Assembly (NCBI GenBank): GCA_965369655.1
Contig: CBDUQR010000034.1
Coordinates: 1 to 31,170 of the forward strand
DNA: 31,170 nucleotides
Source: an uncultured bacterium
GTDB taxonomy: Bacteria; Zixibacteria; MSB-5A5; JAABVY01; JAHJOQ01
Reading direction: 5' to 3'
Position numbers and translations under genes: made by a program. Under the pieces are notes generated by a model, which searched no databases, had not been told where the DNA came from, and saw only the letters and a list, made by a program, of their open reading frames with translations. The number at the start of each line of letters is the position of its first letter. Positions within the stretch are counted from its first letter, which is position 1. Below are positions 2,686 to 22,610 of the stretch, one piece after another.

Positions 2686-2854
2686 AAGCATACGTTCCGG
2701 CAGTTCTTGCATCCGCCGTCGGTCGCTGATCCCGATCCCTGAGGGAAAGGCGGGTGTGTGAACTGCCGGTTAATGAAGACAATGCCGTGTGGCAATTAAT
2801 TGTATATCGCCAGGTCACATCGACGACTCTGTCGCCGCCAAGACCTGTCGAAAC
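2686..2854 (+). repeat. structured dispersed repeat, copy 1 (homologous to the reverse complement of 26455-26595)
   Basis: Shared blocks CGTTCCGGC, GTGTGAACTGCCGG, ATCGCCAGGTCACA, CGACGACTC, CGCCAAGACC, GTCGAAAC in the same order. Long stem CCGGCAGTTC (2697-2706) / GAACTGCCGG (2760-2769). Confidence 0.88.
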
Positions 2855-2878
2855 AATCTATGTGAGTATCATGCGTAT

Positions 2879-3550
2879 ATGACAAATGTCTTGAAAATCC
2901 TGTTGCTTCTCTATATGTCACTGGTGATCGTGTTGAGTTTTGTATACCCGCCGCCTTTGCCGGGACTCGACTGGGCTGACGCATCGCGGATATTCTATTT
3001 CCATGTACCGCAGGCATTGGTTTCGTTCGTCGCTTTTGCCCTCGCAATGGCTTACAGCATAATATATCTCAGGACAAAAAAAATTGAAGACGATGGGAGG
3101 GCTGCGCTCGCCGCCGAACTCGGTATGGTATTCTGTATTCTGGCGACGCTGTCCGGGGCAGTCTTTGCGCGGGTGGCATGGGGATCGTTCTGGAACTGGG
3201 ACCCGCGTGAGACGTCGATCCTGATACTCCTGGTAATCTACGGCGCCTATTTCGCACTTCGTCAGTCGATTGCCCAGCCGGAGAGGCGGGCGTCGTTCTC
3301 AGCGGTCTACTCGATTCTGGCATTTGCCACGGTGCCATTTCTCGGCTTCATTGTTCCACGCGCATACGAATCGCTTCACCCTGAGAACACGCTGGTATCG
3401 CAGGGCGGGATCAATCTCGACGGGTATGTGGCGTTCATTTTCTTTTCATCGATGCTCTGTTTTCTCTGTCTGTATATTTGGCTGTTTATCATCGGCAGCC
3501 GCGTTTTGAAACTGGAACAAAGACGGCTGGAGGAGAGTTATGTCGACTGA
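2879..3550 (+). CDS. ccmC: cytochrome c biogenesis heme-delivery protein CcmC
   Basis: WWD motif WGSFWNWDPRET, RIFYFHVP and SLHP histidines, ~6 TM segments. ATG 2879 chosen. Confidence 0.92.
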   Translation: MTNVLKILLLLYMSLVIVLSFVYPPPLPGLDWADASRIFYFHVPQALVSFVAFALAMAYSIIYLRTKKIEDDGRAALAAELGMVFCILATLSGAVFARVAWGSFWNWDPRETSILILLVIYGAYFALRQSIAQPERRASFSAVYSILAFATVPFLGFIVPRAYESLHPENTLVSQGGINLDGYVAFIFFSSMLCFLCLYIWLFIIGSRVLKLEQRRLEESYVD

Positions 3551-3656
3551 TTGGCAGAATATTGCGGTCATGGCCGTGACGCTGGCGATCTGGATCGGGG
3601 TATTCGTGATTGTATTCCGTCTCGACCGAAGGGTCAGGCGACTGGAGGAGGATTGA
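3540..3656 (+). CDS. ccmD: CcmD-family small membrane protein (38 aa; absent from ORF track)
   Basis: MSTDWQNIAVMAVTLAIWIGVFVIVFRLDRRVRRLEED*: one TM helix plus basic tail, GGAG RBS, located between ccmC and ccmE and overlapping both. Confidence 0.85.
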   Translation: MSTDWQNIAVMAVTLAIWIGVFVIVFRLDRRVRRLEED

Positions 3657-4018
3657 AACGCAAGTGGATCATCGGCGGAGCGATTGTCGTTGTCGCCGCC
3701 ATTTGGCTTATGAGTTCGTTCAACGAATCTCTCACAGCGTATGTTTCCTTCGACGAAGCTAAGCAGAAAGATCGCCGGGTGCAGGTAATCGGATCGATCA
3801 TCAGGGATGGTGTACGATACGACACCGACAGTCTCCAGCTTGTTTTCGATGTCGAGAATGATGACGGCCAGATCATGACAGTCGTCTATTCCGGTACGAT
3901 GCCGGGCAATTTCGATCAGGCGACCAAAATTGTCTGCAAGGGAAAATACACAGATGGTCGGTTTGTCGCCGACGAGCTTCTCCTGAAATGTCCCTCCAGG
4001 TATCAGGGTGAATCCTGA
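3653..4018 (+). CDS. ccmE: heme chaperone CcmE, CxxxY variant
   Basis: TTG start at 3653 after GGAGGA; N-terminal TM anchor; VVYSGTMPGNF...G.F.ADELLLKCPSRY. Confidence 0.9.
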   Translation: MKRKWIIGGAIVVVAAIWLMSSFNESLTAYVSFDEAKQKDRRVQVIGSIIRDGVRYDTDSLQLVFDVENDDGQIMTVVYSGTMPGNFDQATKIVCKGKYTDGRFVADELLLKCPSRYQGES

Positions 4019-4020
4019 CG

Positions 4021-6201
4021 ATGTTCTCCGGAAACCTGTTTCTTACGATGGCGTTCACTGCCTGCGTCGTCTCGACCGCCGGATATTTCCTCGGTGCGGT
4101 TGGGCGCAGTGGCTTCATATCGCTCGGACGACGAGCGTATATCGCTTTCGCCGGTCTCACAACTATACTGACAGCCATATTCCTGTATGAGCTGTTGACC
4201 CACAATTTCCAGATAGCATACGTTCACGATTACAGTTCGACCGACCTGTCGTTCTTCCTTCTGCTATCGACATTCTGGGCGGGGCAGGTTGGCACATTTC
4301 TGCTCTGGCTTTTCCTGACAGCCGTGATCGGATTGCTGATATACAAGCAGCGGGATACGCTGAACTCGACCGTGATGTTCTACTATCTCATAAGTGCGCT
4401 TTTCCTGCTGGTGCTGCTTTCGGTCAACTCGCCGTTCAAGCTCCTGCCGGTCATACCGGCTGAGGGGCGGGGCTTAAATCCACTGCTGCAAAATTTCTGG
4501 ATGATAATTCATCCGCCGATCGTGTTTGTCGGCTATGCTCTTTTCGCGGTACCGTTCGCGTACTCGATGGCGGCAATGACTAAGAACGATTATAAAGACT
4601 GGAACAAACGGGTGTTACCGTGGGCGCTGGTTTCGTCCGGGATTCTTGGGCTTGGTGTTTTTCTCGGCGGCTACTGGGCTTATGAAACTCTCGGGTGGGG
4701 CGGCTACTGGGGATGGGACCCGGTCGAGAATGCCTCGTTGATACCGTGGCTGACTAACCTTGCACTCGTGCACGGCCTGCTCGTTGAACGGAAATACGGG
4801 CAGCTTCGCAAGACAAATTTGATCCTGGCGGCATTCGGGTACCTGCTCGTGATGTATGGCACATTCCTGACCCGAAGCGGTGTGCTCGCAGATTTCTCTG
4901 TCCACTCGTTTACCGATCTTGGTTTGAACATCTATCTCGTGCTGTTCCTGGTCGGCGTACTCTTCGGAATATTTGCGCTTTTCGCATTGCGATTCAGGCA
5001 GATCAGGCCGAAGAAAAAGACCGATGATCCATGGTCGATTGATTTCCTGATGACGGTCGGTATGATCGTGACTACTCTCTTCGCTGTCCTGACACTGATC
5101 GGAACATCATCGCCGCTCATTACGCGACTGCCGATTTTCGATGCGACCGCCAATGTCGATATCAGTTACTACTACAGAATTGCGCTGCCTACCGGCGTTC
5201 TCATGGCACTGCTTGCCGGTCTCACGCCATTCCTTGCTACGAAGAAACCGACCGTGGGAGCTGTGCTCAGACGGTCGATACCGTCGATTGGGATCGCGAT
5301 ACTGGGAGCTGTCATTGGCGTGTTTCTTGGAGTGACTTCGATCAGGCACCTGATGGTTATTTTCTTAGCAGTCTTCGCAATCGCGGCCAACCTGCAGATG
5401 TTCGTCATGTTCCCGGCCAAACTCGGTCGCAAAATGGGCGGACATATCTCGCATATAGGGTTTGGCATACTCCTGATCGGGTTCATCGGTTCGACAGTGT
5501 TTGCGCGGAACGAGAAAGTTGTCCTGAAAATCGATGAGCCATCCGAGGCGTTGGGATATTCAGTCACCTATACCGGGCTTGAGAGAGGTCTGGAGCAAGT
5601 CAACAACTCAGTTTTTGTCGAGATCGAGAAGGACGGCGAGTCGGTGACTGCCGATCCGAGATTGTATTATGATTCGTACAATCGCGGCATCATGAAGAAG
5701 CCGTGGATTCAATCGCATCTGCTATTTGATCTGTATCTGTCGCCGGAGCAAATCGAGACAAGGCGTCCGGGTACGACGTTCTTTTTGACCAAAGGTGAGA
5801 CCTTCGACATGGATAATGTCAGCATTACTTTCGAGAATTTCGATATGTCGTCGCACGGCGAGCCGGGTTCGATCGAGGTTGGTGCGGTTCTTCTCATCGA
5901 GACTCCCGATGATTCGTTCACTGTCGTGCCGAAGCTATCTGTGCTCGCTGATGGCGGACGCGAAAGCGTTCCGGTGGAAATCGGCAGCGACGGTCTGGCT
6001 GTGTCGCTCGAGAGCGTCATGCCTGATCGCAGGATGGTCGAGTTGCGTGTCGCGGGACAGGACGAAACCGAAACAGATATCCTTGTCCTCGATGTCGCCA
6101 CCAAACCGCTTATCATGTTTGTCTGGCTCGGATCGATCATAATAGTCGTTGGTGCCTTGATTGCGACTTATCATCGCTATCGACTCTCCAAAGCTATCTG
6201 A
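4021..6201 (+). CDS. ccmF: cytochrome c heme lyase CcmF
   Basis: GLNPLLQ..IHPP, WAYETLGWGGYWGWDPVENAS and FLTRSG..SVHSF motifs; many TM helices. Confidence 0.95.
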   Translation: MFSGNLFLTMAFTACVVSTAGYFLGAVGRSGFISLGRRAYIAFAGLTTILTAIFLYELLTHNFQIAYVHDYSSTDLSFFLLLSTFWAGQVGTFLLWLFLTAVIGLLIYKQRDTLNSTVMFYYLISALFLLVLLSVNSPFKLLPVIPAEGRGLNPLLQNFWMIIHPPIVFVGYALFAVPFAYSMAAMTKNDYKDWNKRVLPWALVSSGILGLGVFLGGYWAYETLGWGGYWGWDPVENASLIPWLTNLALVHGLLVERKYGQLRKTNLILAAFGYLLVMYGTFLTRSGVLADFSVHSFTDLGLNIYLVLFLVGVLFGIFALFALRFRQIRPKKKTDDPWSIDFLMTVGMIVTTLFAVLTLIGTSSPLITRLPIFDATANVDISYYYRIALPTGVLMALLAGLTPFLATKKPTVGAVLRRSIPSIGIAILGAVIGVFLGVTSIRHLMVIFLAVFAIAANLQMFVMFPAKLGRKMGGHISHIGFGILLIGFIGSTVFARNEKVVLKIDEPSEALGYSVTYTGLERGLEQVNNSVFVEIEKDGESVTADPRLYYDSYNRGIMKKPWIQSHLLFDLYLSPEQIETRRPGTTFFLTKGETFDMDNVSITFENFDMSSHGEPGSIEVGAVLLIETPDDSFTVVPKLSVLADGGRESVPVEIGSDGLAVSLESVMPDRRMVELRVAGQDETETDILVLDVATKPLIMFVWLGSIIIVVGALIATYHRYRLSKAI

Positions 6202-6402: not shown

Positions 6403-6594
6403 AAAACTCAAGGATTATGTTTTCCTGGCAGGCATTCCTGAATCACAAAAGGGGACAGAGTCGAGAATCTGTCACGGGACAATGTGGATTGGGAGTAACA
6501 AGGCTGAAGTTTCACTGTTCAAAGTCATAAAACGGATTGCACTTTTGCACCATAGACTTTATGATGAGCTGAAGAACTGTTGTACCTGAGGAAT

Positions 6595-7923
6595 ATGACT
6601 AACAGGAATAATGATACAACCGAAATCATCCTCGACTCTATAGCCGACGGAGTGTTTACTGTCGATCGCGAATGGCGAATCACCTCATTCAACCGCGCAG
6701 CTGAGGAGATTACCGGCATTCTCAGGGAGGAGGCTATCGGCCAACGGTGCTGTGACGTTTTCCATGCTTCAATCTGCGAAACAGACTGCGCACTCAGAGA
6801 GACGTTCAAAACTAATCAACCAGTAGTCAATCGCGCAGTTTATATCATTGATGCGGGTGGAGACAGAGTCCCAATCAGTATTTCAACTGCGGTTCTAAAG
6901 GACAAGAGAGGAAATGCTATAGGTGGCGTTGAGACGTTCAGGGATCTGAGCGCGATTGAGGAACTCAGACGGGCATTGGAAAAGAAATACTCCTTTCACG
7001 ACATCATAAGCAAAGACGCCGAAATGCTGAGAATCTTCGATGTTCTTCCCGCTATTGCCCAAAGCGACAGCACCGTTCTCATCGAAGGCGAAACCGGCAC
7101 CGGTAAAGAGCTGATCGCCCGTGCTCTTCACAGCCTTTCTCGTCGGAAGGACAAGCCAATCATAACTGTCAACTGTGGAGCACTTCCGGACACGCTGCTT
7201 GAATCGGAGCTATTTGGTTACAAGGCCGGAGCGTTTACCGATGCGCGCAAAGACAAACCGGGTCGCTTCGCAATGGCCGAAACCGGGACGATTTTTCTCG
7301 ACGAGATCGCTGATATTTCTCCTGCATTGCAGGTGCGACTGCTGCGGGTTATTCAGGAGCGAACCTATGAACCTCTGGGTGCCACGAAATCAGTTGAAGC
7401 GGATGTTCGCATTATTGCCGCTACGAACAAGGGTCTCGAAAGGCTTGTTAAATCAGGTAAGTTTCGGGAAGATCTCTATTATCGAATAAATGTAATTCGC
7501 ATCAAATTGCCGCCACTTCGAGAGCGCAAAGAAGATATTCCTCTGTTAGTTAATCATTTCATACGCCGTTTCAACAATCTCAAAAAGAAACTTGTGGCAG
7601 ATATTTCCCCTGTTGCAATGACGGTCCTGATAAGTTATGATTACCCGGGCAATATCAGAGAGCTGGAGAATATCATAGAGCATGCCTTCGTTCTCTGTCG
7701 AGGAACCATCATTGACATCGACAATCTGCCGGAGAGTATCAGACCCAAAGAGGTCAAACCTTTGACCCCATCGACTTCAATGGATGATCTTGAAGCTGCT
7801 TACATTCGCGAGGCGTTGAGAAGACACAATTGGAACAGGAAAAAGACGGCCGAAGAACTTGGAATGCATAAGACAACGCTCTGGCGAAAAATGAAAAAAC
7901 TCGGAATCCACCCTCCACGATAA
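6595..7923 (+). CDS. PAS-domain sigma54-dependent activator (OrpR-like)
   Basis: PAS domain with C-X8-C-X3-C (CCDVFHASICETDC), Walker A GETGTGKE, ESELFG-GAFTDA, FLDEI, FREDLYYR, PGNIREL, and a C-terminal Fis HTH. Confidence 0.92.
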   Translation: MTNRNNDTTEIILDSIADGVFTVDREWRITSFNRAAEEITGILREEAIGQRCCDVFHASICETDCALRETFKTNQPVVNRAVYIIDAGGDRVPISISTAVLKDKRGNAIGGVETFRDLSAIEELRRALEKKYSFHDIISKDAEMLRIFDVLPAIAQSDSTVLIEGETGTGKELIARALHSLSRRKDKPIITVNCGALPDTLLESELFGYKAGAFTDARKDKPGRFAMAETGTIFLDEIADISPALQVRLLRVIQERTYEPLGATKSVEADVRIIAATNKGLERLVKSGKFREDLYYRINVIRIKLPPLRERKEDIPLLVNHFIRRFNNLKKKLVADISPVAMTVLISYDYPGNIRELENIIEHAFVLCRGTIIDIDNLPESIRPKEVKPLTPSTSMDDLEAAYIREALRRHNWNRKKTAEELGMHKTTLWRKMKKLGIHPPR

Positions 7924-12656: not shown

Positions 12657-12789
12657 CTGTATCAGTCAAAGGACAGTAATCTGAGAGCTATGATTACTGT
12701 TCTCCTTGATTTGAGAGCGTCCAATTACCAGAACCAGATACCACTCAAGTGACTGAAGCCGGAGTCCCGCAGGTCATGAGCCCTGCATA

Positions 12790-13000
12790 GTCCTCAGCTT
12801 TGCGAAGGGTGCTCCTGATGTCTTCGTGTTGTGAATTGAATCGTCAGGACCGCCCTTCGCCAAACTCAGGACACGCAAGTCGGGTGGCTCACCCCCTGGG
12901 GTGAGGTCTCTGGTCCCTAACTCGCGATGAAGAACTTTCACCCAAAGGGGTAGGTCACCGGTCTTTCATAATATCATTGCGAGCGAAGCGTGGCAATCTC
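12790..13000. repeat. REP-like cluster: two inverted 31-bp doublets plus a CATTGCGAGCGAAGCGTGGCAATCTC unit
   Basis: 12790-12820 pairs with 12842-12872; 12881-12911 pairs with 12931-12961; the unit at 12973-13000 recurs at 20436-20463. Confidence 0.8.
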
Positions 13001-13088
13001 AGCCTAATCCCCCTTTTCCCAGTCAGGAATTCATTATCAGGCACGGGCACAGGACACCCTTCGATGACCAAAAAGAGCAACTAATCGA

Positions 13089-13117
13089 TGGACAATATGG
13101 GGTTTCTGATATATGAT
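13089..13117 (+). promoter_or_regulatory. sigma70 promoter upstream of gdh
   Basis: TGGACA-17 nt-TATGAT, the same hexamers as the ccm promoter at 2641. Confidence 0.55.
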
Positions 13118-13206
13118 ACGCGACGGCAATATGGTAGTCGAATACCATTGACGCGACAGGCGCTCAAGGCGTAATTGCGACAGCAATGAATGAACAAATG
13201 TGAGGC

Positions 13207-14502
13207 ATGAAACTTATGGTACAGACAGAATTCAACCCGTTCAAAATGGCACAGGATCAGTTCAACAGGGCCGCCGAATTCCTCGGTCTCGATAGCGCAA
13301 CCTGTGAACTTCTGCGCACACCGATTCGCGAATATCAATTCAGCATTCCTGTGCGTATGGATGATGGGAACGCGAAAATATTCCGAGGCTTTCGAGTCCT
13401 TCACAATGATGCGAGGGGTCCCGGCAAGGGAGGCATTCGATTTCATCCGCAGGAAACGATCGACACCGTGCGTGCTCTCTCTATGTGGATGACATGGAAG
13501 TGCGCTGTTGTCGACATTCCACTGGGCGGCGGTAAAGGTGGAGTGATATGCGATCCCCACAGCCTCAGTCTCAGGGAGCAGGAATTGATATGTCGCGGTT
13601 ATGTCAGGCAGATGTGGAACAATCTCGGTCCGGCGGTTGACGTCCCGGCGCCCGATGTAATGACAAGCGCTCAGCATATGCTCTGGATGCTTGACGAGTA
13701 CGAGGTAATCTCGGGAGAAAAGAAACCTGGGTTCATCACCGGCAAGCCGGTCGGTCTCGGAGGCTCGCTCGGGCGGAAAGAAGCGACAGGCTACGGTGTA
13801 GTTTTCACAATTCGCGAGGCGCTCAAAGAGCTTGGAATCAAGGCGGAGAATACAACCGCGAGTGTGCAGGGCTTCGGGAACGTCGCACAATATGCAATCG
13901 AGCTTTATCAGCAGATGGGCGGAACTGTCGTATGTGTATCCTGCTGGGATCAGAAAGATCAGGTGTCGTACTCGTTCAGGAAAAAGTCGGGCGTTGACTT
14001 GAAGGAACTTCTCGGCATCACAGATCCATTCGGTGGAATCGAGATTGATAAGGCGCTGGATCTCGGATATGAAAAGCTTCCGGGTGATGCGTGGCTTGAG
14101 CAGGATGTGGACATACTCATTCCGGCCGCGCTCGAAAACCAAATAACTGCTGACAATGTCGATAAGGTTAGTGCCAATGTCAAGATCATGGCTGAAGGTG
14201 CGAATGGTCCGACTACACCTGATGCCGACGAGGTGTTGAAGAAGAACAATGTATTCGTCATACCTGATTTTCTCGCGAATGCCGGTGGAGTTACATGCAG
14301 TTATTTCGAGCAGGTTCAAAGCAATATCAACTACTTCTGGGACAAGGATGACGTGCTGGGAAGGCTCGACCTGAAAATGACGTCTGCATTCCAGGCAGTC
14401 AGTCAACTGGCGAAGAAGAAAAACCTGTTCATGCGTGACGCGGCATATTTCATCTCCGTCGACCGTGTAGCTCGGGCATGCAAGGACAGAGGCTGGGTCT
14501 GA
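13207..14502 (+). CDS. gdhA: Glu/Leu/Phe/Val dehydrogenase, most likely glutamate dehydrogenase
   Basis: RGPGKGGIRFHP, MTWKCA..PLGGGKGG, VPAPDV, TGKP..GGSLGRKEATGYG, QGFGNV, AEGANGPTT, PDFLANAGGVTCSYFE. Start could be ATG 13216. Confidence 0.93.
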   Translation: MKLMVQTEFNPFKMAQDQFNRAAEFLGLDSATCELLRTPIREYQFSIPVRMDDGNAKIFRGFRVLHNDARGPGKGGIRFHPQETIDTVRALSMWMTWKCAVVDIPLGGGKGGVICDPHSLSLREQELICRGYVRQMWNNLGPAVDVPAPDVMTSAQHMLWMLDEYEVISGEKKPGFITGKPVGLGGSLGRKEATGYGVVFTIREALKELGIKAENTTASVQGFGNVAQYAIELYQQMGGTVVCVSCWDQKDQVSYSFRKKSGVDLKELLGITDPFGGIEIDKALDLGYEKLPGDAWLEQDVDILIPAALENQITADNVDKVSANVKIMAEGANGPTTPDADEVLKKNNVFVIPDFLANAGGVTCSYFEQVQSNINYFWDKDDVLGRLDLKMTSAFQAVSQLAKKKNLFMRDAAYFISVDRVARACKDRGWV

Positions 14503-14565
14503 TTCCGAGGGAATCGCGACTGATGGTTCGAGATTCAATATGGAATCGGGAGGTATTATCTGGAA

Positions 14566-16287
14566 ATGCTGAAGGAATTCGATCGGCAGTTCTTCGGCTC
14601 TGCAGATCGTCTGACATATATTGGATCGGGTGAGTTGGGCGGCAAGGCTGGCGGGTTGGTCTATATTCGGGACTTTCTCGAAAGGGATTTTGATCCGCAA
14701 GCCATACCTCAGATAGAAGTATCCATTCCTATCATGACAGTCATCACTACGGACATGTTTGACAAGTTCATGGAGAGGAATGATCTATATGAAGTTGCCA
14801 GTTCAGATGCAAGAGATGATCAGATTGCTCTCGCTTTTCAGCAGGCTTCGCTGCCGGTTGAACTGGTGGGCGATCTTCGCGCGCTTATTTCGAAAGTGCA
14901 TCAACCACTTGCGATCAGATCTTCCAGCCTGCTCGAAGATACCGTCAATGAACCATTCGCGGGCGTCTATTCAACCAAGATGATCCCCAACAATCAGCCC
15001 GACCCTGATGTACGATTCCAGAAGCTGGTTGAGGCGATCAAATTCGTCTATTCCTCGACTTATTTCAAGAGTGCGAAGAACTACTCCCGTGCGACATCCA
15101 ATCTGAGTTCCGACGAAAAGATGGCTGTCATCATACAGGAAGTTGTCGGGTGTCGGTTCGGAAATCGTTTCTATCCGCACGTGTCGGGGGTTGCTCGATC
15201 ATATAACTTCTACCCGAGTGGTCATGCAAAACCCGAAGACGGCGTGGTGAATCTTGCGTTGGGTTTGGGCAAGACTGTTGTCGATGGCGGGAAATGCTGG
15301 ATTTATTCCCCAGCCTATCCCAGGACCAATCCGCCCTATAAGTCGATCAGTGATATGCTCAAGCAGACGCAGACATCGTTCTGGGCTGTGAATATGGGAA
15401 AACCTCCGGCCTTTGATCCGATTCACGAGACCGAGTATCTTGTCGAAGGGGATTTGCATGACGCCGAGGTCAACGGTTCCCTGTATTATACCGCCTCGAC
15501 TTATGATCCTCAGAACGATAAGCTGACGGTCGGAACAGGCTTGCCGGGACCGCGAGTGCTGACAATTGCTCCTTCACTGATGGTTCGCGATATACCGCTT
15601 AACAATTTGCTGAAGAATCTGCTTGAACTGAGTGAAAACGCTCTTCAGAACGAAGTCGAAATAGAGTTCGCTTTATCTCTTCATCCTGAATATGGATTAC
15701 CAGCTCGCCTCGGGTTCCTGCAGGTACGACCAATGTCTGTCTCCGATGCGAAAGTGGAAGTCACAGATGATGAGCTGTCGGCGAGCAACGCTCTGGTGGC
15801 ATCGAAAGTTGTGATTGGCAATGGAACCGAGGAATCGATCTCCGATATTGTTTACGTCAAGCCGCAGGCATTCGACGCAAAGAATACGAACAAGATCGCG
15901 TCTGATCTGATTGAGTTCGTAAACAGACTCGCTGATGACGACAGGAAATACATGCTTATTACGCTTGGCCGACTCGGAACGTCAGATCCATGGATGGGTG
16001 TGCCCGTTGAGTTCTCAGAAGTCGCAGGCGCCAAAGTCATTGTCGAGTCGACGGCGCCCGGCATGAATGTGGAACTGAGCCAGGGCTCACATTTCTTTCA
16101 CAATATCATAGGCATGCATATACTCTACTTCACGGTTCAGCATACGGGAGACTTTCCTGTGAAATGGGACTGGCTTGATCGGCAGGCCAGTGTGGTAGAG
16201 ACCGACAATGTAAGGCACGTAAGACTTGCATCTCCGTTACTGGTGAAAGTTGACGGACGGGCTGGTCGAGGAGTGGTGTTAGTATGA
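14566..16287 (+). CDS. PEP synthase/PPDK N-terminal (ATP-grasp) domain protein with C-terminal unknown domain
   Basis: LGGKAGGL, AIRSSSLLED..FAG, MAVIIQEVVG, SGVA, LGLG, EIEFA, LQVRP. No TSHA phosphohistidine motif and no PEP-binding barrel. Confidence 0.85.
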   Translation: MLKEFDRQFFGSADRLTYIGSGELGGKAGGLVYIRDFLERDFDPQAIPQIEVSIPIMTVITTDMFDKFMERNDLYEVASSDARDDQIALAFQQASLPVELVGDLRALISKVHQPLAIRSSSLLEDTVNEPFAGVYSTKMIPNNQPDPDVRFQKLVEAIKFVYSSTYFKSAKNYSRATSNLSSDEKMAVIIQEVVGCRFGNRFYPHVSGVARSYNFYPSGHAKPEDGVVNLALGLGKTVVDGGKCWIYSPAYPRTNPPYKSISDMLKQTQTSFWAVNMGKPPAFDPIHETEYLVEGDLHDAEVNGSLYYTASTYDPQNDKLTVGTGLPGPRVLTIAPSLMVRDIPLNNLLKNLLELSENALQNEVEIEFALSLHPEYGLPARLGFLQVRPMSVSDAKVEVTDDELSASNALVASKVVIGNGTEESISDIVYVKPQAFDAKNTNKIASDLIEFVNRLADDDRKYMLITLGRLGTSDPWMGVPVEFSEVAGAKVIVESTAPGMNVELSQGSHFFHNIIGMHILYFTVQHTGDFPVKWDWLDRQASVVETDNVRHVRLASPLLVKVDGRAGRGVVLV

Positions 16288-19200
16288 GTGATAAGAAACC
16301 TCCCGTCGGCAATCTCCTGGACTCTCTTCGAGAGAGAGCCAAGGAGTTTGACTGTCTGTACGAAATTGAAGAGATGCTGAAGGATTTCGACAGGCCTTTG
16401 GAGGACGTGTGCGCTGACATCATTGAGGAAATTCCGTCGGGCTGGCAATTTCCGGACGTCTGCGTTGCAAAGATCTCTATGGATGGCAAGGATTACTCAT
16501 CCCCAGACTTCGTCGAGACATCATGGGTACTGAGTGCACAGATTCAGAGTCAGGAGAAAGTGTTTGGATCGATCAATGTCTACTATACCAGGGAGATGCC
16601 TCAGTCGGGAATTGGGCCATTTCTGAGCGGAGAGAAAAGGCTGATTGATACGATTGCAGACCGATTCAGTCACTACATTCAGCATCGGAAGTGGAAGAAA
16701 ATTGTCAGGCAATGGGAAACGGCTCAGGATGATCTGTCAAGGCACAGGAAGCCGGAGTGGCAGGTTGTATTGGAGTTGCTCAGACGGACCGACAAGAACC
16801 TGCTCCTGAATGTATCTCACAAAATGCTGAATCACCTCTGTTGGAACGGCATTGAAGAGGCGGAGCAACTGCGACAGGGTGCGAGCATCGGGCCGATTAT
16901 GGACGACGAGGAAATGTTTCAGGATGTGAATCAGCCGCATGCGAAGCAAGCCCTGCTGTTCTCCGAGGAATTGAGCGTAGAAACGTTCAGGATCGCTTCC
17001 GAGCACTTTGCCGATGAAGACATCCTGAACAGGATGCAGCGGTGGATACAGCAGGAGAAACTTGTTTTTCTCGTACAGGTCGTGAACCGAAATCTTCCCC
17101 TGTCTGAGGTTGCCGATGCTATCAGGCGGTATCACCACCTCGCCGCAGAGGAAAAAGGTATAGAATCGCCCAACAAGAAAGGTATCGAGGTTTCTCTTAT
17201 TCGTCGCTTCTTTTCCGACCAGCTCGACTTCATAAAAGTAGCAAAAAACTATATCGAGGTCTCTGACTTCTATCAACTGCTGAAACGCGTCCTCTACGCA
17301 ACCGAAAGTCACGGAAAGCTTGGGGGCAAATGCGCAGGAGTATATCTGGCCTCGCAGATACTGAAGAAGTCAGAAAAGCACCCTGATCTGCTTGGGAATG
17401 TCAAGACTCCGAGAACATGGTATGTGTCATCAGATATGTTGCTCCAATTCATGCGCTATAACAATTTCGATGAAGTCGTCGAGCAGAAGTACAAAGACAT
17501 AGACCAGGTGCGGCTCGAATATCCGTACATCGTCCGGACATTCAAGAATTCTCACTTTCCTATGGAGATTGTCCAGGGATTGTCGCTCGCCCTCGACGAT
17601 TTCGGAGATTGCCCTCTCATCGTCAGGAGTTCCAGTCTTCTGGAGGACAGGTTGGGTGCGTCATTCTCCGGCAAGTACAAGAGCCTCTTTATCGCGAATC
17701 GCGGTACGAAGGCGGAGAAACTCGAAGCGCTCACGGATGCAATTGCCGAGGTTTACGCATCGACATTCGGCCCTGATCCGATAGAATACCGCGCCGAACG
17801 GGGGCTGCTTGATTTTGGCGAAGAGATGGGGATTATGATTCAGGAAGTGGTCGGCTCCAGGATCGGCAAGTATTTCTTCCCAACATTTGCAGGAGTTGCA
17901 TTCAGCAGGAATGAATTCAGATGGTCGCCGCGCATCAAGCGAGAGGATGGTCTCATTCGGATGGTTCCCGGTCTCGGAACGCGCGCTGTCGACAGATTGA
18001 GCAGTGACTACCCCATCCTCGTAGCTCCCGGCCAGCCGAATCTGCGAGTGAATGTCTCTATCAATGAGATCGTGCAATACTCGCCGAAGGAAATCGATGT
18101 TATCGATCTCGATACCAATTCACTCGAGACTCTGACGCTGGAGAAAATTCTCAGAGAGGTGGGCGACGAAATTCCCGGGGTCGAACACATTGTCTCGACG
18201 TTTGACGGCGATCATATCAGGAGGCTGTCAGGTCTCAATACTAACTTCGACGAAGGTAAATATGTAGTCACATTCGATGGGCTGATGTCTCAGACGAAGT
18301 TTATCGAGCAGGTCCATGCCATGCTCGAGGTTCTGGAAAGTGAGCTCGGAACTCCGGTTGACATCGAATTCGCTTCCGATGGTAAGGACTTCTATTTACT
18401 GCAATGCAGGCCTCAGTGCTACGCTCCGGATGCTCTTCCAGCGCCTATACCGAAGGATATTCCTGACGAGGATGTTCTTTTCTCAGCCAACAAATATATA
18501 TCAAACGGTACTGTGGAGGGCATAACGCACATAGTTTATGTCGATCCGATCAAGTATGGACAGATATCGGAGCACTCCGAAATGCTTGCGGTAGGCAGGG
18601 CAGTCGGCAGACTCAACAAACTGCTGCCGAAGCGTCAGTTTATACTGATGGGGCCGGGACGCTGGGGGAGCAAGGGTGACATCAAACTGGGAGTCAGCGT
18701 AACCTATTCCGACATCAACAACAGCGTAGTTCTGATGGAAATTGCTCGTCAGAAGGGCGATTATCTCCCGGACCTTTCATTCGGAACTCATTTCTTCCAG
18801 GATCTTGTTGAGACCAATGTGCGTTATCTGCCGTTATATCCGGATGACGACGGCGTAGTCTTCAACGAGCGGTTCTTCACGAGTTCGCCGAACATACTCT
18901 TGGAAGTACTGCCGGAATACGCCCATCTTTCCGATGTTCTCCGTCTGATCGATGTCTCCAAGTCCTCCGGGGGAAAGGTGCTCAGGATTCTTATGAACGC
19001 TGATCTGGATGAGGCGGTCGGTATCCTTGCTCATCCCGGAGGAGAAGAGCCGACAGCCAAACTGCTGGATCAATATGAGGAACAGCAACCGGAAAACCAC
19101 TGGAGTTGGCGACTGAGGATGGCTGAGAAAATAGCATCGCAGATGGACCCGTCGAAGTTCGGTGTGATTGCGCTTTACATATTCGGAAGTACCAAGAACG

Positions 19201-19466
19201 GAACCGCAGGACCCGGCAGCGATATCGATATTCTGGTTCACTTCAGAGGAACCGCGAATGAACGCGACATGCTCAATACCTGGCTGCACGGCTGGAGCCT
19301 CTGCCTCGACGAAGTGAACTATCTTCGGACCGGCTACAGGACAGGCGGGCTGCTCGATGTGCACATCGTCACCGACGCGGACATAGAGAAAAAGACGAGC
19401 TATGCTGTCAAGATAGGCGCGGTCACAGACGCCGCGAGACCTTTGTCACTCGGCAAGTCAGAGTAG
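16284..19466 (+). CDS. GAF-like + PPDK_N ATP-grasp + unknown domain + nucleotidyltransferase fusion protein (1060 aa)
   Basis: N-terminal ERAKEFDCLY..PSGWQFPD..PFL..E segment; LGGKCAG, IVRSSSLLED, DIEFA, LQCRP; C-terminal LYIFGSTKNGTAGPGSDIDILV..LDVHIV Pol-beta-type motif. ATGA overlap with the previous gene. Confidence 0.85.
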   Translation: MSDKKPPVGNLLDSLRERAKEFDCLYEIEEMLKDFDRPLEDVCADIIEEIPSGWQFPDVCVAKISMDGKDYSSPDFVETSWVLSAQIQSQEKVFGSINVYYTREMPQSGIGPFLSGEKRLIDTIADRFSHYIQHRKWKKIVRQWETAQDDLSRHRKPEWQVVLELLRRTDKNLLLNVSHKMLNHLCWNGIEEAEQLRQGASIGPIMDDEEMFQDVNQPHAKQALLFSEELSVETFRIASEHFADEDILNRMQRWIQQEKLVFLVQVVNRNLPLSEVADAIRRYHHLAAEEKGIESPNKKGIEVSLIRRFFSDQLDFIKVAKNYIEVSDFYQLLKRVLYATESHGKLGGKCAGVYLASQILKKSEKHPDLLGNVKTPRTWYVSSDMLLQFMRYNNFDEVVEQKYKDIDQVRLEYPYIVRTFKNSHFPMEIVQGLSLALDDFGDCPLIVRSSSLLEDRLGASFSGKYKSLFIANRGTKAEKLEALTDAIAEVYASTFGPDPIEYRAERGLLDFGEEMGIMIQEVVGSRIGKYFFPTFAGVAFSRNEFRWSPRIKREDGLIRMVPGLGTRAVDRLSSDYPILVAPGQPNLRVNVSINEIVQYSPKEIDVIDLDTNSLETLTLEKILREVGDEIPGVEHIVSTFDGDHIRRLSGLNTNFDEGKYVVTFDGLMSQTKFIEQVHAMLEVLESELGTPVDIEFASDGKDFYLLQCRPQCYAPDALPAPIPKDIPDEDVLFSANKYISNGTVEGITHIVYVDPIKYGQISEHSEMLAVGRAVGRLNKLLPKRQFILMGPGRWGSKGDIKLGVSVTYSDINNSVVLMEIARQKGDYLPDLSFGTHFFQDLVETNVRYLPLYPDDDGVVFNERFFTSSPNILLEVLPEYAHLSDVLRLIDVSKSSGGKVLRILMNADLDEAVGILAHPGGEEPTAKLLDQYEEQQPENHWSWRLRMAEKIASQMDPSKFGVIALYIFGSTKNGTAGPGSDIDILVHFRGTANERDMLNTWLHGWSLCLDEVNYLRTGYRTGGLLDVHIVTDADIEKKTSYAVKIGAVTDAARPLSLGKSE

Positions 19467-19468
19467 GG

Positions 19469-20308
19469 TCAGATCAACTCTCGTGTTGCGCCATCCAGAT
19501 TCTCGAGATCGAACCGCACCAGAGCCAGTTCAGGACCATCATGAGCGGCGGAAAACATGTGTGTTTCGCCAATCAGGTCGCGCCATGATCCAGTAAGTCG
19601 CGGCGACTCGTGGATATGGCCGTGAAGAGTCAAGAGCGGCTGCTGCGTTTCAATGAATTGCCGTACAGCTTTGCTGCCAACGTTAATATGTGACGGGATG
19701 TGATCGAGATTCGTACGGTAGGGCGGTGTGTGAAACAGCATGACGGATTTGCTTAAATCAGCGTCACCAGTCAATTGCTCCAGATCTTTCTGAATGGTTG
19801 AGTATCTCGTTTCGTCACTCGAAACATCAGAACTGTGGAAACCGTCCTCCGGTGAGATCGTTCCGGGATCAACATATCGGGAAACATCGTATCGCTCCCA
19901 GTCTTTCAAGAGAAACGGGGTCGGAGGAACATAGGCATATCCGTAGACTGAATGCTCGCCGAGTGCGACCTTGCGATCATGCACATAAGTCCAGATTCCC
20001 TCCGCTCTCAGGATCGAGCTTTCAGCCGCGCGACCGTCATCATTGCCCAGAATCAGGAACACTGTTGGATATGATTCGCCAAGTTCTCTCCTGACCCGTG
20101 CGAACTCCACTGCAAGGTAATCTGTCACGAAGTCGGAAATGCCACCGTGTCGATCCTGCTGACTCGATGACATGTGCGGCAGAATATCTCCTCCGATAAA
20201 GAGAACATCAAGCGGCTCACTCACAAGTCTGTCGAACAGCTTTTCGTACCTGTTGATGCTTCCGTGGATATCTGATACGAAAAAACATCTGGTCCGCTTC
20301 TCAACCAT
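19469..20308 (-). CDS. calcineurin-like (Icc-related) metallophosphoesterase
   Basis: SDIHG, GGD, GNDD, HTPP and HGHIHE motifs. Start ATG 20308; the longer 5' extension runs through a repeat. Confidence 0.88.
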   Translation of the reverse strand: MVEKRTRCFFVSDIHGSINRYEKLFDRLVSEPLDVLFIGGDILPHMSSSQQDRHGGISDFVTDYLAVEFARVRRELGESYPTVFLILGNDDGRAAESSILRAEGIWTYVHDRKVALGEHSVYGYAYVPPTPFLLKDWERYDVSRYVDPGTISPEDGFHSSDVSSDETRYSTIQKDLEQLTGDADLSKSVMLFHTPPYRTNLDHIPSHINVGSKAVRQFIETQQPLLTLHGHIHESPRLTGSWRDLIGETHMFSAAHDGPELALVRFDLENLDGATRELI

Positions 20309-20398
20309 AGAACATATAATGCCGTCAATCCTTCGTTCGATCAACACTTTTGTTCGCATTTGACGAATAGAGAAGAATCCGTGGCGACAGATAACCAA

Positions 20399-20463
20399 GT
20401 CGTTGCCGCTCCTCGCGAAGACGCCTGCGGTGTTCGTCATAGCGAGCGAAGCGTGGCTATCTC
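20399..20463. repeat. divergent pair of GTCAT(T/A)GCGAG...GC(A/T)ATCTC REP-like units
   Basis: 20436-20463 matches 12973-13000; the reverse complement of 20399-20422 resembles 26250-26273. Confidence 0.75.
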
Positions 20464-20564: not shown

Positions 20565-21158
20565 ATGACTTTATCCGGATTCTTCTTCCTCTGCCTGATA
20601 GCAGGCCTGATATATGCGGTGATTAGCCTGATCATGTCGGGCGGATTTTCTGCCGGGACAGAAGCGGACATGAGCGTCGACGGCGGTGATATCGACGCGG
20701 GCGACGTCAGCGGCGAAATAACATTCTCGCCAGTCTCCCCCACCGTGATAGCTACATTCATAACCGCATTCGGCGGCGGAGGCATCGTTGCGACTGAAGG
20801 TCTGAAGTGGGGCGCACTGGCTGCCGTTGCGACAGCGTGCGGCTCCGGGTTTGCGATTGCGGGACTCGTATATGCAGTCCTGAGCACAGTCTACAAGCGG
20901 ACGCAGGGGTCGTCGGAAGCTCATGCGGAAGACGCTATCGGTGTGACGGCGCAGGTGCTCACTCCGATAGCGAACGACACAGTTGGCGAGATTGCGTATG
21001 TCTGTCGCGGTTCGCGTCTCACCGGACCCGCAAGATCAATCGACAATCAGGCGATCGGAAAGAATACTTTAGTCGAGATCATCAGGGTCGTAGGCTCGAC
21101 ACTCTACGTCCGTCCGGTCTCAGGCGATTCACAGGACGGTAAGGATCAGGAGGGTTAG
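20565..21158 (+). CDS. NfeD-like membrane protein (flotillin partner)
   Basis: Three TM segments then an OB-fold-type tail (IGVTAQVLTPI..GEI..ARS..I.K...VEII.V.G.TLYV), directly upstream of flotillin. Confidence 0.85.
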   Translation: MTLSGFFFLCLIAGLIYAVISLIMSGGFSAGTEADMSVDGGDIDAGDVSGEITFSPVSPTVIATFITAFGGGGIVATEGLKWGALAAVATACGSGFAIAGLVYAVLSTVYKRTQGSSEAHAEDAIGVTAQVLTPIANDTVGEIAYVCRGSRLTGPARSIDNQAIGKNTLVEIIRVVGSTLYVRPVSGDSQDGKDQEG

Positions 21159-21161
21159 ATC

Positions 21162-22610
21162 ATGTTCGGACTCGACATAAGCTGGGTATTCGCGGTCTTC
21201 GCGGTAATAATGGTCGTGTTCTTCCTTTTCATCGTAATCTCGAAGAGATATGTCAAGGTCGGACCAAACGAAGTTCTGGTCATCTCGGGCGTGAGGCACA
21301 AGATACTCACGGTAGATGGCGGCAAGGAATCAGTCGGTTACAGGATATTGAAAGGCGGCGGCACGTTCGTAATCCCGATTTTCGAACGTGTCGACCGCCT
21401 TTCACTGGAGATATTCACACTCGACGTGAACACACCGGAGGTCTACACGGCTCTGGGTGTTACGGTCATGGTGGATGGCGTTGCGCAGGTAAAAATCAAG
21501 GGAGATGACGTTTCGATACGGACAGCTGCTGAGCAGTTTCTTTCGAAGGGAAAGCAGGAGATAATGAATATCTCCCTGCAGACCATGGAAGGTCACCTGC
21601 GCGCCATCCTCGGAACCATGACGGTTGAGGAGATATACTCTAACCGCGATGCATTCGCCTCGAAAGTCCAGGAAGTTGCCGCCACAGACCTGGCGAACAT
21701 GGGAATGGTCGTCGTCTCGTTTACCATCCGCGACATCCGGGACAATCAGGGATATCTCGATGCTCTCGGAAAACCGCGTGTTGCACAGGTGATGCGCGAT
21801 GCCGCCATCGGTGAGGCGGAAGCGTCGAGGGACGCCACCATAAGATCGGCAGACGCTAAACGCCTGGGCGAAGTTGGCAGACTTGAGGCCGAGACAAAGA
21901 TCGCGGCGGCGGACCGGGACTATCAGATGAAGCTCGCCGAGTATGAAGCATCGGTAAACCAGAAGAAAGCCGACGCCGATCTCGCGTACGATCTCCAGAA
22001 ATACAAGACTGAGCAGCTTGTCAAGGAAGAGGAAGTTTCGGTCAAGATCGTCGAGAAGACGAAAGAGATCGAGCTCGCCGAGAAAGAGGTCTCACGCAAG
22101 CAACTCGAGTTGAACGCATCGATCCAGCGCCCTGCGGATGCAGAGAAATACAAGCTGGAGACGGTCGCAGAAGGGCAGTCATCCGCGATCAAACTAACCG
22201 GTCACGCTGAAGCCGAGGCGAACAAAGCTCGCGGCATCGCGCAGGCTGACGTCATCAGGGCACAGGGGCTTTCCGAAGCCGAGGCGATGTCCAAGAAATC
22301 CGAAGCCTGGAAAGAGTACAACCAGGCTGCAATCGCGCAGATGCTGATCGAGAAGCTTCCCGAAATAGCTCGAGCAATCTCCGAACCGCTGACAAAGACG
22401 GAGAAAATTGTCATTATCAATTCCGGCAATGGTCCCGGTGGCGGAGCATCGAAGATTACCGGCGATGTCACGCAGATAATCGCACAGCTTCCGCCGGTTG
22501 TCGAATCTTTGACTGGTCTGAAGTTCGAGGATATTCTCGGTCGCATTCCCGGCATCCAGCGCGAAAAGAAAGCCGAGGTCAGAATAAAGGACCCTGAACA
22601 GGAATCGTAA
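21162..22610 (+). CDS. flotillin (SPFH domain) protein
   Basis: N-terminal TM, GGGTFVIP, AAEQFL, EGHLRAILGTMTVEEI, GYLDALG, AEA-rich coiled coil, KLPEIARAISEPL. Confidence 0.95.
   Translation: MFGLDISWVFAVFAVIMVVFFLFIVISKRYVKVGPNEVLVISGVRHKILTVDGGKESVGYRILKGGGTFVIPIFERVDRLSLEIFTLDVNTPEVYTALGVTVMVDGVAQVKIKGDDVSIRTAAEQFLSKGKQEIMNISLQTMEGHLRAILGTMTVEEIYSNRDAFASKVQEVAATDLANMGMVVVSFTIRDIRDNQGYLDALGKPRVAQVMRDAAIGEAEASRDATIRSADAKRLGEVGRLEAETKIAAADRDYQMKLAEYEASVNQKKADADLAYDLQKYKTEQLVKEEEVSVKIVEKTKEIELAEKEVSRKQLELNASIQRPADAEKYKLETVAEGQSSAIKLTGHAEAEANKARGIAQADVIRAQGLSEAEAMSKKSEAWKEYNQAAIAQMLIEKLPEIARAISEPLTKTEKIVIINSGNGPGGGASKITGDVTQIIAQLPPVVESLTGLKFEDILGRIPGIQREKKAEVRIKDPEQES

Follow-up and report, generated by a model that had tools for sequence, protein, structure and literature searches.

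The window analysed here is an entire contig of 31,170 bases (CBDUQR010000034.1, labelled C34 in its genome assembly) from an uncultured member of the Zixibacteria. The subject of this analysis is a group of genes in its middle part: three open reading frames (ORFs) on the + strand that encode a glutamate dehydrogenase (GDH; gene gdh) and two proteins, denoted A and B, which share a core related to phosphoenolpyruvate (PEP) synthase (PEPS) and pyruvate phosphate dikinase (PPDK), and a metallophosphoesterase gene that converges on B. An earlier note on this DNA, prepared from the sequence without database searches, had singled out gdh, A and B as a candidate regulatory system. The features of the locus are as follows (window coordinates, strand, description).

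13207-14502, +: gdh, hexameric-type glutamate dehydrogenase of 431 amino acids (aa), with the Pfam domains ELFV_dehydrog_N and ELFV_dehydrog
14566-16287, +: gene A, dikinase-like core protein of 573 aa, ATP-grasp plus His-bearing C-domain (Pfam, conservation, AlphaFold2)
14632-15762, +: A residues 23-399, PPDK_N ATP-grasp (Pfam, 122.9 bits; cut-off 27)
15763-16284, +: A residues 400-573, swivel-like C-domain with the invariant His509, codon 16090-16092 (conservation, structural alignment)
16284-19466, +: gene B, 1060 aa, sensor, dikinase-like core and nucleotidyltransferase (NTase) (Pfam, conservation, AlphaFold2)
16311-16724, +: B residues 10-147, GAF-like sensor
16755-17282, +: B residues 158-333, helical linker domain (secondary structure of the model; no Pfam match below E 0.04)
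17316-18434, +: B residues 345-717, PPDK_N ATP-grasp (Pfam, 191.2 bits; cut-off 27)
18447-19043, +: B residues 722-920, swivel-like C-domain with the invariant motifs GPGRWGS and SFGTHFFQD, including His836, codon 18789-18791
19098-19463, +: B residues 939-1060, minimal Pol-beta NTase (PF01909, 40.8 bits; PF18765, 30 bits)
19469-20440, -: metallophosphoesterase, convergent with B (Pfam Metallophos, PF00149, 41.8 bits; cut-off 21.5)

The spacer between gdh and A comprises 63 nucleotides (nt; 14503-14565), and the TGA stop codon of A and the ATG start codon of B share the tetranucleotide ATGA at 16284-16287; coordinates, Pfam and hhalign thus agree with the layout described in the earlier note, that is, gdh followed by two overlapping, paralogous PPDK_N proteins. 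Shine-Dalgarno-like stretches (GGAGG/GAGGAG) precede both the A and the B start by about 12-13 nt, the one ahead of A being a GGGAGG located inside the spacer, about 12 nt 5' of the ATG. No terminator-like site was detected in the spacer by a motif scan, the overall yield of which was at chance level. The His-bearing C-domains, the sensor and the NTase of B, and the convergent metallophosphoesterase were absent from the earlier note.

The paralogy of A and B extends over the ATP-grasp and the subsequent C-domain (A 20-529 against B 342-856; 28% identity over 487 columns at an hhalign probability of 100%), and for each protein, relatives at about 55-68% identity number in the thousands. The ATP-grasp motifs, which the earlier note had described as kept in both proteins, are indeed present (GGK, RSSSLLED, QE, EIEFA/DIEFA and LQxRP) and invariant among 70 A and 78 B sequences; in A, the invariant residues are K27, R118, S119-S121, E124, D125, Q191, E192, E365, E367, Q386 and R388. 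In the same set of sequences, the C-domain motifs GR(L/W)G(T/S) and S-x-G-[ST]-H-F-F are invariant as well, including S505, Q506, G507, H509, F510 and F511 of A. As the note had anticipated, a Pfam search finds PPDK_N in both proteins and neither PF00391 (PEP-utilizers) nor PEP-utilizers_C (PF02896); the TSH motif (G-G-x-T-S-H) does not occur in the C-domains, which contain G[ST]HFF instead. Sequence searches with the remaining parts were uninformative: Pfam at E up to 10 gave nothing meaningful for B 1-345, B 715-945 or A 394-573, a PDB search gave no match for A at E up to 1 and only weak ATP-grasp matches along with a chance-level match to catenin for B, and a search of the ESM Atlas with A 400-573 returned no usable match.

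The predicted structures are more telling with regard to the C-domain. The AlphaFold2 model of A (predicted local distance difference test score, pLDDT, 86.6; predicted template-modelling score, pTM, 0.86) matches the folds of rifampin phosphotransferase (RPH), PEPS and PPDK. Through its last residue, 573, it aligns to PEPS (2ols) up to residue 465 and to PPDK (1dik) up to residue 505; likewise, in the B model (pLDDT 79.4), the core aligns to 2ols 13-467 with residues 306-917 and to 1dik 12-513 with residues 306-921. The C-domains of A and B comprise about 175-200 residues, and about 80-110 additional residues are aligned within the His domains of 2ols, 1dik and 5hv3. Only 277 residues are aligned with the isolated ATP domain 5hv6_A, to residue 391 of the A model, and only 227-234 with the PPDK entries 5lu4_A and 5jvl_A, where the alignments end near chain residues 348-374; the B model behaves the same way against the ATP-domain-only and PPDK entries. 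All these matches involve predicted models and are aligned ranges rather than residue pairs. Because these ranges run into the His domain of PEPS and PPDK, the C-domain of A and B appears to occupy the place of the phosphohistidine swivel domain docked on the nucleotide site, as in 1dik, which we take to be the docked conformer. The earlier note had held that both proteins lack the phosphohistidine domain and the PEP/pyruvate TIM barrel; the TSHA motif, PF00391 and PF02896 are missing as it said, but a C-domain with an invariant His seems to overlay the His domain of PEPS and PPDK, so this part of the claim stands only for the sequence signatures and the barrel.

The core of B is flanked by two domains that A lacks. 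The N-terminal GAF-like domain appears to be a modular sensor: it was detected in 8306 representative proteins (E up to 0.001), and 40 of the best 150 of these, when scanned, comprised 19 histidine kinases, 5 LuxR-type regulators, 3 other PPDK_N proteins, 2 methyl-accepting chemotaxis proteins, 2 Ser/Thr kinases, 2 STAS proteins and 7 with other domains or none. The C-terminal domain matches NTP_transf_2 and Polbeta over residues 948-1004, both above the Pfam cut-offs, and displays the Pol-beta motif G-[SG]-x9-13-D-x-[DE] with a third carboxylate (G968-S969...S979-D980-I981-D982 plus D1025), which is kept in paralogs; among the 78 B sequences, G968 and S979 are invariant and S969, D980, D982 and D1025 are conserved in at least 90%. 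Accordingly, the nucleotidyl-transfer element suggested in the earlier note exists, but it is a separate domain of B and not the ATP-grasp.

The genomic linkage of these proteins to gdh was surveyed in the best 80 B loci of a species-representative genome set; the comparison genomes are samples rich in metagenome-assembled genomes (MAGs). A gdh gene 62-77% identical to that of the window adjoins B in 72 of the 80 loci. In seven of the other eight, the expected place of gdh is cut by a contig end, and a single locus (L059) has 10 kb of gdh-free upstream DNA; where at least 3.4 kb of upstream sequence is available, gdh is present at 61 of 62 loci. By the depositors' record titles, the linked loci carry at least 12 phylum labels, including Zixibacteria, Ignavibacteria/Bacteroidota, Calditrichota, Acidobacteriota, Planctomycetota, Spirochaetes, Chloroflexota, Bacillota, Gemmatimonadota, Krumholzibacteriia, Delongbacteria, Chitinispirillaceae, Deltaproteobacteria and others. 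The gdh-A-B layout was found at 41 loci, mostly with the convergent phosphoesterase; in a second layout, gdh is followed directly by B, usually without the phosphoesterase, and at four loci gdh is divergent from B. Within the window's own phylum, B was identified in 117 of the 201 sampled genomes (67 of 108 genera), and among 15 orthologous loci from different families, gdh lies upstream of B in all 15, A is present in 14 and the phosphoesterase in 12. The earlier note had mentioned similar proteins beside gdh in other anaerobes and proposed a neighbourhood survey; this strong enrichment bears the statement out. The suggested partnership of A and B gains support from the ATGA coupling and from a natural A-B fusion protein of 1634 aa (P0162); four further B relatives listed share its length and are fusion candidates on that ground.

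The linked GDH is distinctive in itself. The window protein matches ELFV_dehydrog_N (178.2 bits) and ELFV_dehydrog (236.8 bits) over its full length, and its best PDB match by sequence is 1euz (E 6.7e-127, residues 7-431); none of the NCBIfam equivalog cut-offs is reached (GdhA_Arch, 479.8 bits versus 750). Across loci and genomes, the linked GDHs form a clade of their own, with 62-79% identity. When window-type GDH was defined by E up to 1e-170 and at least 60% identity, it was present in 110 of the same 201 own-phylum genomes: 109 have both B and this GDH, 8 B only, 1 the GDH only and 83 neither, counts that are given without a probability since the genomes include relatives and are not independent. 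Among the eight B-only genomes, two of the matches are other paralogs and the rest come from assemblies that are 84-92% complete. In 20 genomes without B, the best GDH is 42-54% identical to that of the window in 19 cases. Compared with 21 unlinked GDHs, 41 linked ones have in common insertions at 246-251, 283-286 and 322-323, and 27 near-invariant residues are specific to the clade (e.g., C129, R134, H157, E166, W247, W296, C364, Q369 and N373); from their conservation, these might be docking or modification sites.

The stop codons of the metallophosphoesterase gene and of B are only 2 nt apart. The true start of the phosphoesterase is probably Met45 at 20308, yielding a protein of 279 aa, because homologs align from residue 46-52 onward; a PDB sequence search gave no close solved relative, only YfcE at E 0.53. 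The gene is present in 34 of the best 80 B loci and tracks A: in the 56 informative loci, the raw counts are 27 with both, 21 with neither, 5 with the phosphoesterase only and 3 with A only, which become 28, 20, 4 and 4 after reassignment of two loci where the ORF call for B extended into A.

Relatives of A and B are found next to other enzymes of glutamate metabolism, too. Proteins of about 990 aa that combine Response_reg, DUF5752, PPDK_N and a His-bearing C-domain adjoin a second, GdhA-like GDH (about 453 aa, 32-34% identical to the window GDH; e.g., L034:7380-11769 and L044:1475-5978), and one such receiver-type protein adjoins a main-type gdh (L048:5431-9791). No mention of DUF5752 was found in the open-access PubMed Central (PMC) and bioRxiv text. 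Of the 22 own-phylum matches whose identity to B does not exceed 53%, 21 were considered, and 17 of these B-like genes directly adjoin a glutamate-synthase-like trio, which consists of a NuoF+GltD fusion (about 1062 aa), a 225-aa 2Fe-2S/4Fe-4S protein and a 530-aa GltB-like Glu_synthase protein. The trio-linked genes are B-like or A-B-like (loci L131-L136, L139, L140, L202-L208, L210 and L211; e.g., L132:5983-14764), and the other four comprise a receiver-type paralog, a 597-aa paralog, a locus that is cut off at 950 nt and, at a contig end, a gdh-A-B arrangement of the ordinary kind. This branch was counted from the low-identity matches to B because a search started from one trio-linked paralog did not recover the others as a group, their mutual distance being the same as their distance to B. 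At L211:4698-14502, a B-like gene without the NTase lies between the trio and a gdh (63% identical), all on a single strand, which places the sensor protein in the middle of the two glutamate enzymes; the window's genome has the trio at C13:1668-7145 with no B-like gene beside it. At several loci near gdh or the second GDH type, we also observed proteins of about 551 aa that have no Pfam match but keep GGK, RSS and G-T-H-F, with large insertions (L052:3261-4916, L010:16427-18097, L011:5101-6759 and L016:16364-18031); the A/B family probably includes them as a very diverged branch.

Taking domain make-up, linkage and co-inheritance together, we give about even odds to the view that gdh, A, B and the phosphoesterase constitute one module, a sensor-gated covalent switch of a dedicated GDH. 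At least one dikinase-like core that is catalytically intact, by motif conservation, occurs in each gdh-linked module. The GAF-like domain of B would bind a metabolite, which, if the GAF domains of NifA and PtsP are a guide, could be a signal of nitrogen/carbon status such as 2-oxoglutarate or glutamine, and would gate the dikinase-type core, in which ATP would load a phosphoryl group on His836 of the swivel-like domain; A would be a second copy of the core, without a sensor and with His509 in the equivalent role. The phosphoryl group, a nucleotidyl group from the Pol-beta NTase, or both would then pass to a target, most likely GDH, and alter its activity, and the metallophosphoesterase would take off the mark; the diverged paralogs might serve the glutamate-synthase-like complex in the same manner. 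Because paralogs adjoin glutamate-synthase-like genes, we read the A/B family as regulators of the glutamate/2-oxoglutarate node, a role wider than that of GDH regulator. The complete scheme, a widespread and undescribed post-translational control of the glutamate node in which a GAF-gated phosphohistidine enzyme with an NTase marks the dedicated GDH, paralogs mark the glutamate-synthase-like complex, the sensor-less paralog is a second kinase and the phosphoesterase is the eraser, is offered tentatively, as somewhat short of an even chance.

Several observations weigh against such a scheme. Compared by hhalign with swivel-domain profiles derived from related genomes (17 PPDK-like and 9 PEPS-like ORFs), the C-domains of A and B score a probability below 1%, and the long alignments obtained at relaxed settings have zero confidence in the C-domain part; given this lack of sequence likeness to PEP-utilizers, the phosphocarrier reading rests on aligned ranges of predicted structures and on the invariant His. 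That GDH is bound or modified by A or B is something we infer; a complex prediction for GDH with B residues 150-340 and 722-1060 scored 0.00 but was run without controls and counts neither way on binding. The trio-linked forms range from full length with the NTase through NTase-less (about 920-945 aa) to those from which the C-domain is also gone (about 715-747 aa), and in the full-length ones, the sensor and the NTase are retained but the motifs of the core and of the C-domain are eroded (L133 and L139 no longer have the His); catalysis therefore is not needed in every branch, even if the A-like partners of these forms retain all motifs. NTase-less forms with 54-61% identity to B are linked to gdh in four of five cases, so the link does not require the NTase. 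The sole GDH-only genome among the 201 sampled (G029) carries an intact gdh of the linked type, 73% identical, with no B-like gene downstream (L171:8710-9996). Finally, GDH and the glutamate-synthase-like proteins share substrates but not folds, so that a role on small molecules would explain both linkages more simply.

This last point is the starting position of a metabolic explanation, one of the two main rivals, the other being a non-covalent regulatory role. As dikinase-type enzymes, A and B would use ATP to phosphorylate or nucleotidylate a small molecule of the glutamate/2-oxoglutarate node (glutamate, 2-oxoglutarate, a cofactor or an intermediate) and perhaps couple ATP to the reaction of GDH or glutamate synthase (GOGAT). 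This explanation accommodates the substrates that GDH has in common with the NuoF/GltD, Fe-S and GltB-like trio, the invariance of the catalytic residues in both A and B, the Shine-Dalgarno-like stretches ahead of both genes with no terminator-like site in the spacer after gdh, and the fact that all characterised fold relatives found (PEPS, PPDK, RPH and HpeI) act on small molecules. Nevertheless, we consider it unlikely: the third, acceptor-binding domain present in PEPS, PPDK and RPH is absent, GAF-like and receiver modules are typical of signalling proteins, the cores of retained paralogs are eroded in the manner of pseudo-enzymes, and a generic substrate link does not require a separate, co-inherited GDH clade with insertions of its own.

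Alternatively, B (and A) could be non-covalent allosteric partners of GDH or of the glutamate-synthase-like complex that sense a metabolite or adenylates, with ATP turnover and the His setting the state of B itself. In favour of such a role, the ATP-grasp, the sensor and the helical part persist in the trio-linked variants, while the NTase, or the C-domain as well, is often missing or the His has been lost, and the truncated PPDK VadK is reported to interact with metabolic enzymes, those of the methylcitrate cycle (PMC13400623). In the gdh-linked branch, however, all catalytic residues of both cores and of the NTase are conserved, and a phosphoesterase gene that travels with A fits a reversible covalent mark, so this possibility, too, seems to us a minor one.

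The presence of GAF-like, NTase and Metallophos domains in one module, along with a faint match of the NTase region to Adenyl_cycl_N (E 0.17, under threshold), could also suggest a self-contained second-messenger loop, with the NTase as the source of a signalling nucleotide, the GAF-like domain as its receptor and the phosphoesterase as the enzyme that degrades it, GDH being only co-regulated. Such a loop is quite improbable, given that the phosphoesterase tracks A rather than the NTase and that NTase-less B forms are still linked to gdh; besides, two dikinase cores and a dedicated GDH clade would be left unexplained.

That A and B are a PEPS or PPDK, as the PPDK_N match and the source names of many homologs ("pyruvate, water dikinase" and "pyruvate, phosphate dikinase") would have it, can be practically dismissed, in line with the earlier note, because neither PEP-utilizers nor PEP-utilizers_C is present, the NCBIfam equivalog scores are far under the cut-offs (e.g., 52.1 versus 883) and a 979-aa, PPDK-like ORF with both PPDK_N and PEP-utilizers, the one further PPDK_N ORF of the genome, lies on contig C36. 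Genome-wide, PF00391 is matched only on C36 and C1. Database names of this kind lead to metabolic reconstructions of these MAGs that contain a gluconeogenic step which is wrong.

The module has the following surroundings in the window. A non-coding gap of 550 nt (12657-13206) precedes gdh; an Rfam scan of the window, including this gap, detected no family. The gap contains a promoter candidate:

13089-13117, +: sigma-70-like promoter candidate, TGGACA-17-TATGAT (10 of 12 consensus matches, about 90 nt upstream of gdh)

This site is a candidate by consensus match alone, and the region holds 11 such sites versus 7.5 expected. The sigma-54 promoter pattern has 5 matches in the window versus 7.7 expected and none in the gap. 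A regulator with PAS, sigma-54 activator and HTH_8 domains is encoded 5 kb upstream, at 6580-7923. Between 8913 and 12656 lie genes for a DUF5320 protein, a 4Fe-4S ferredoxin-like protein, two MinD/ParA-type ATPases with 4Fe-4S inserts and a Nitro_FeMo-Co protein (Nitro_FeMo-Co being a domain like those that bind the dinitrogenase cofactor); these small redox and assembly genes are not kept beside the module at other loci. Farther upstream are an ORF with HTH_3 and IrrE/Peptidase_M78 (607-1755), a 175-aa ORF without a family and, after it, ccmC/E/F-like cytochrome c maturation genes (2789-6201). Past the phosphoesterase, at 20565-22610, an NfeD-like gene is followed by a flotillin gene (Band_7 and Flot), an ordinary pair. 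A 539-aa ORF at 13081-14700 on the - strand was dropped as an opposite-strand shadow of gdh; it recurs in 20 loci because gdh recurs there.

Covalent control of glutamine synthetase is textbook knowledge; for bacterial GDH, we found no equivalent, and for the gdh-A-B module no description, in the open-access PMC and bioRxiv literature, supplements lying outside the search. GDH and glutamate synthase sit at the junction of carbon and nitrogen metabolism, and the carriers of the module are mostly uncultivated anaerobes and lineages from soil and sediment. If the proposed switch is real, it would represent a new protein-control chemistry that joins a dikinase-type His relay to an NTase, a new ligand-sensing input to nitrogen metabolism, and a counterpart of GlnE and GlnD for GDH and GOGAT built on a PEP-synthase core; the system, with its three or four proteins, is directly testable.

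Among known systems, PEPS, PPDK and rifampin phosphotransferase share with A and B the N-terminal ATP-grasp (PF01326), but A and B lack the acceptor domain, whether TIM barrel or rifampin-binding, as well as the TSH motif, whereas B has a sensor and an NTase, and both are in fixed linkage with gdh. In the nitrogen phosphotransferase system, PtsP (EI-Ntr) is a GAF-gated enzyme that relays a phosphoryl group from PEP to NPr by means of a PEP-utilizers_C barrel; B uses an ATP-grasp in place of such a barrel, and no HPr-like gene turned up next to it in the window ORFs scanned. GlnE adenylylates glutamine synthetase and GlnD uridylylates PII, reversibly and in response to 2-oxoglutarate and glutamine. 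Like B, they are large multi-domain enzymes with Pol-beta-type NTase domains; the NTase of B, however, is minimal (about 120 residues) and joined to a dikinase core, its presumed target is GDH, and no GlnE or GlnD family domain is among the Pfam and NCBIfam matches of B. The MntA-type NTases of MNT-HEPN pairs, which AMPylate their protein partner, resemble the NTase of B in being small Pol-beta enzymes with the G-S...D-x-D motif; the NCBIfam match of B to MntA is, however, weak and under the family cut-off (28.1 bits versus 60), the domain is the C-terminal part of a 1060-aa enzyme, and no HEPN domain was detected among the neighbouring window ORFs scanned. Phenylphosphate synthase and, by the title of PDB entry 9goj, HpeI are split dikinases. 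They are catabolic, act on phenolic substrates and have an ATP-binding subunit without a His domain of its own, in contrast to A and B, each of which has a His-bearing domain and a place in a gdh locus.

The closest precedent, in architecture, appears to be VadK (Rv1127c) of Mycobacterium tuberculosis, described in its report as a truncated PPDK, the histidine domain of which was identified by overlay on PPDK (PMC13400623). VadK is reported there to autophosphorylate on His with ATP-Mg, without a PEP/pyruvate domain, and, rather than making PEP, to interact with and tune enzymes of the methylcitrate cycle (PMC13400623). Like A and B, it combines an ATP-binding and a His domain and has no PEP/pyruvate domain, the His domain of A and B being assigned by structure only. 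The differences are that the C-domains of A and B lack sequence likeness to PF00391, that VadK, as described there, has neither a GAF sensor nor an NTase, and that its partners are methylcitrate-cycle enzymes and not GDH. As the VadK case shows, loss of the PEP/pyruvate domain can leave a dikinase that autophosphorylates on His and regulates metabolic enzymes (PMC13400623), which is the kind of role that we propose for A and B at the glutamate node.

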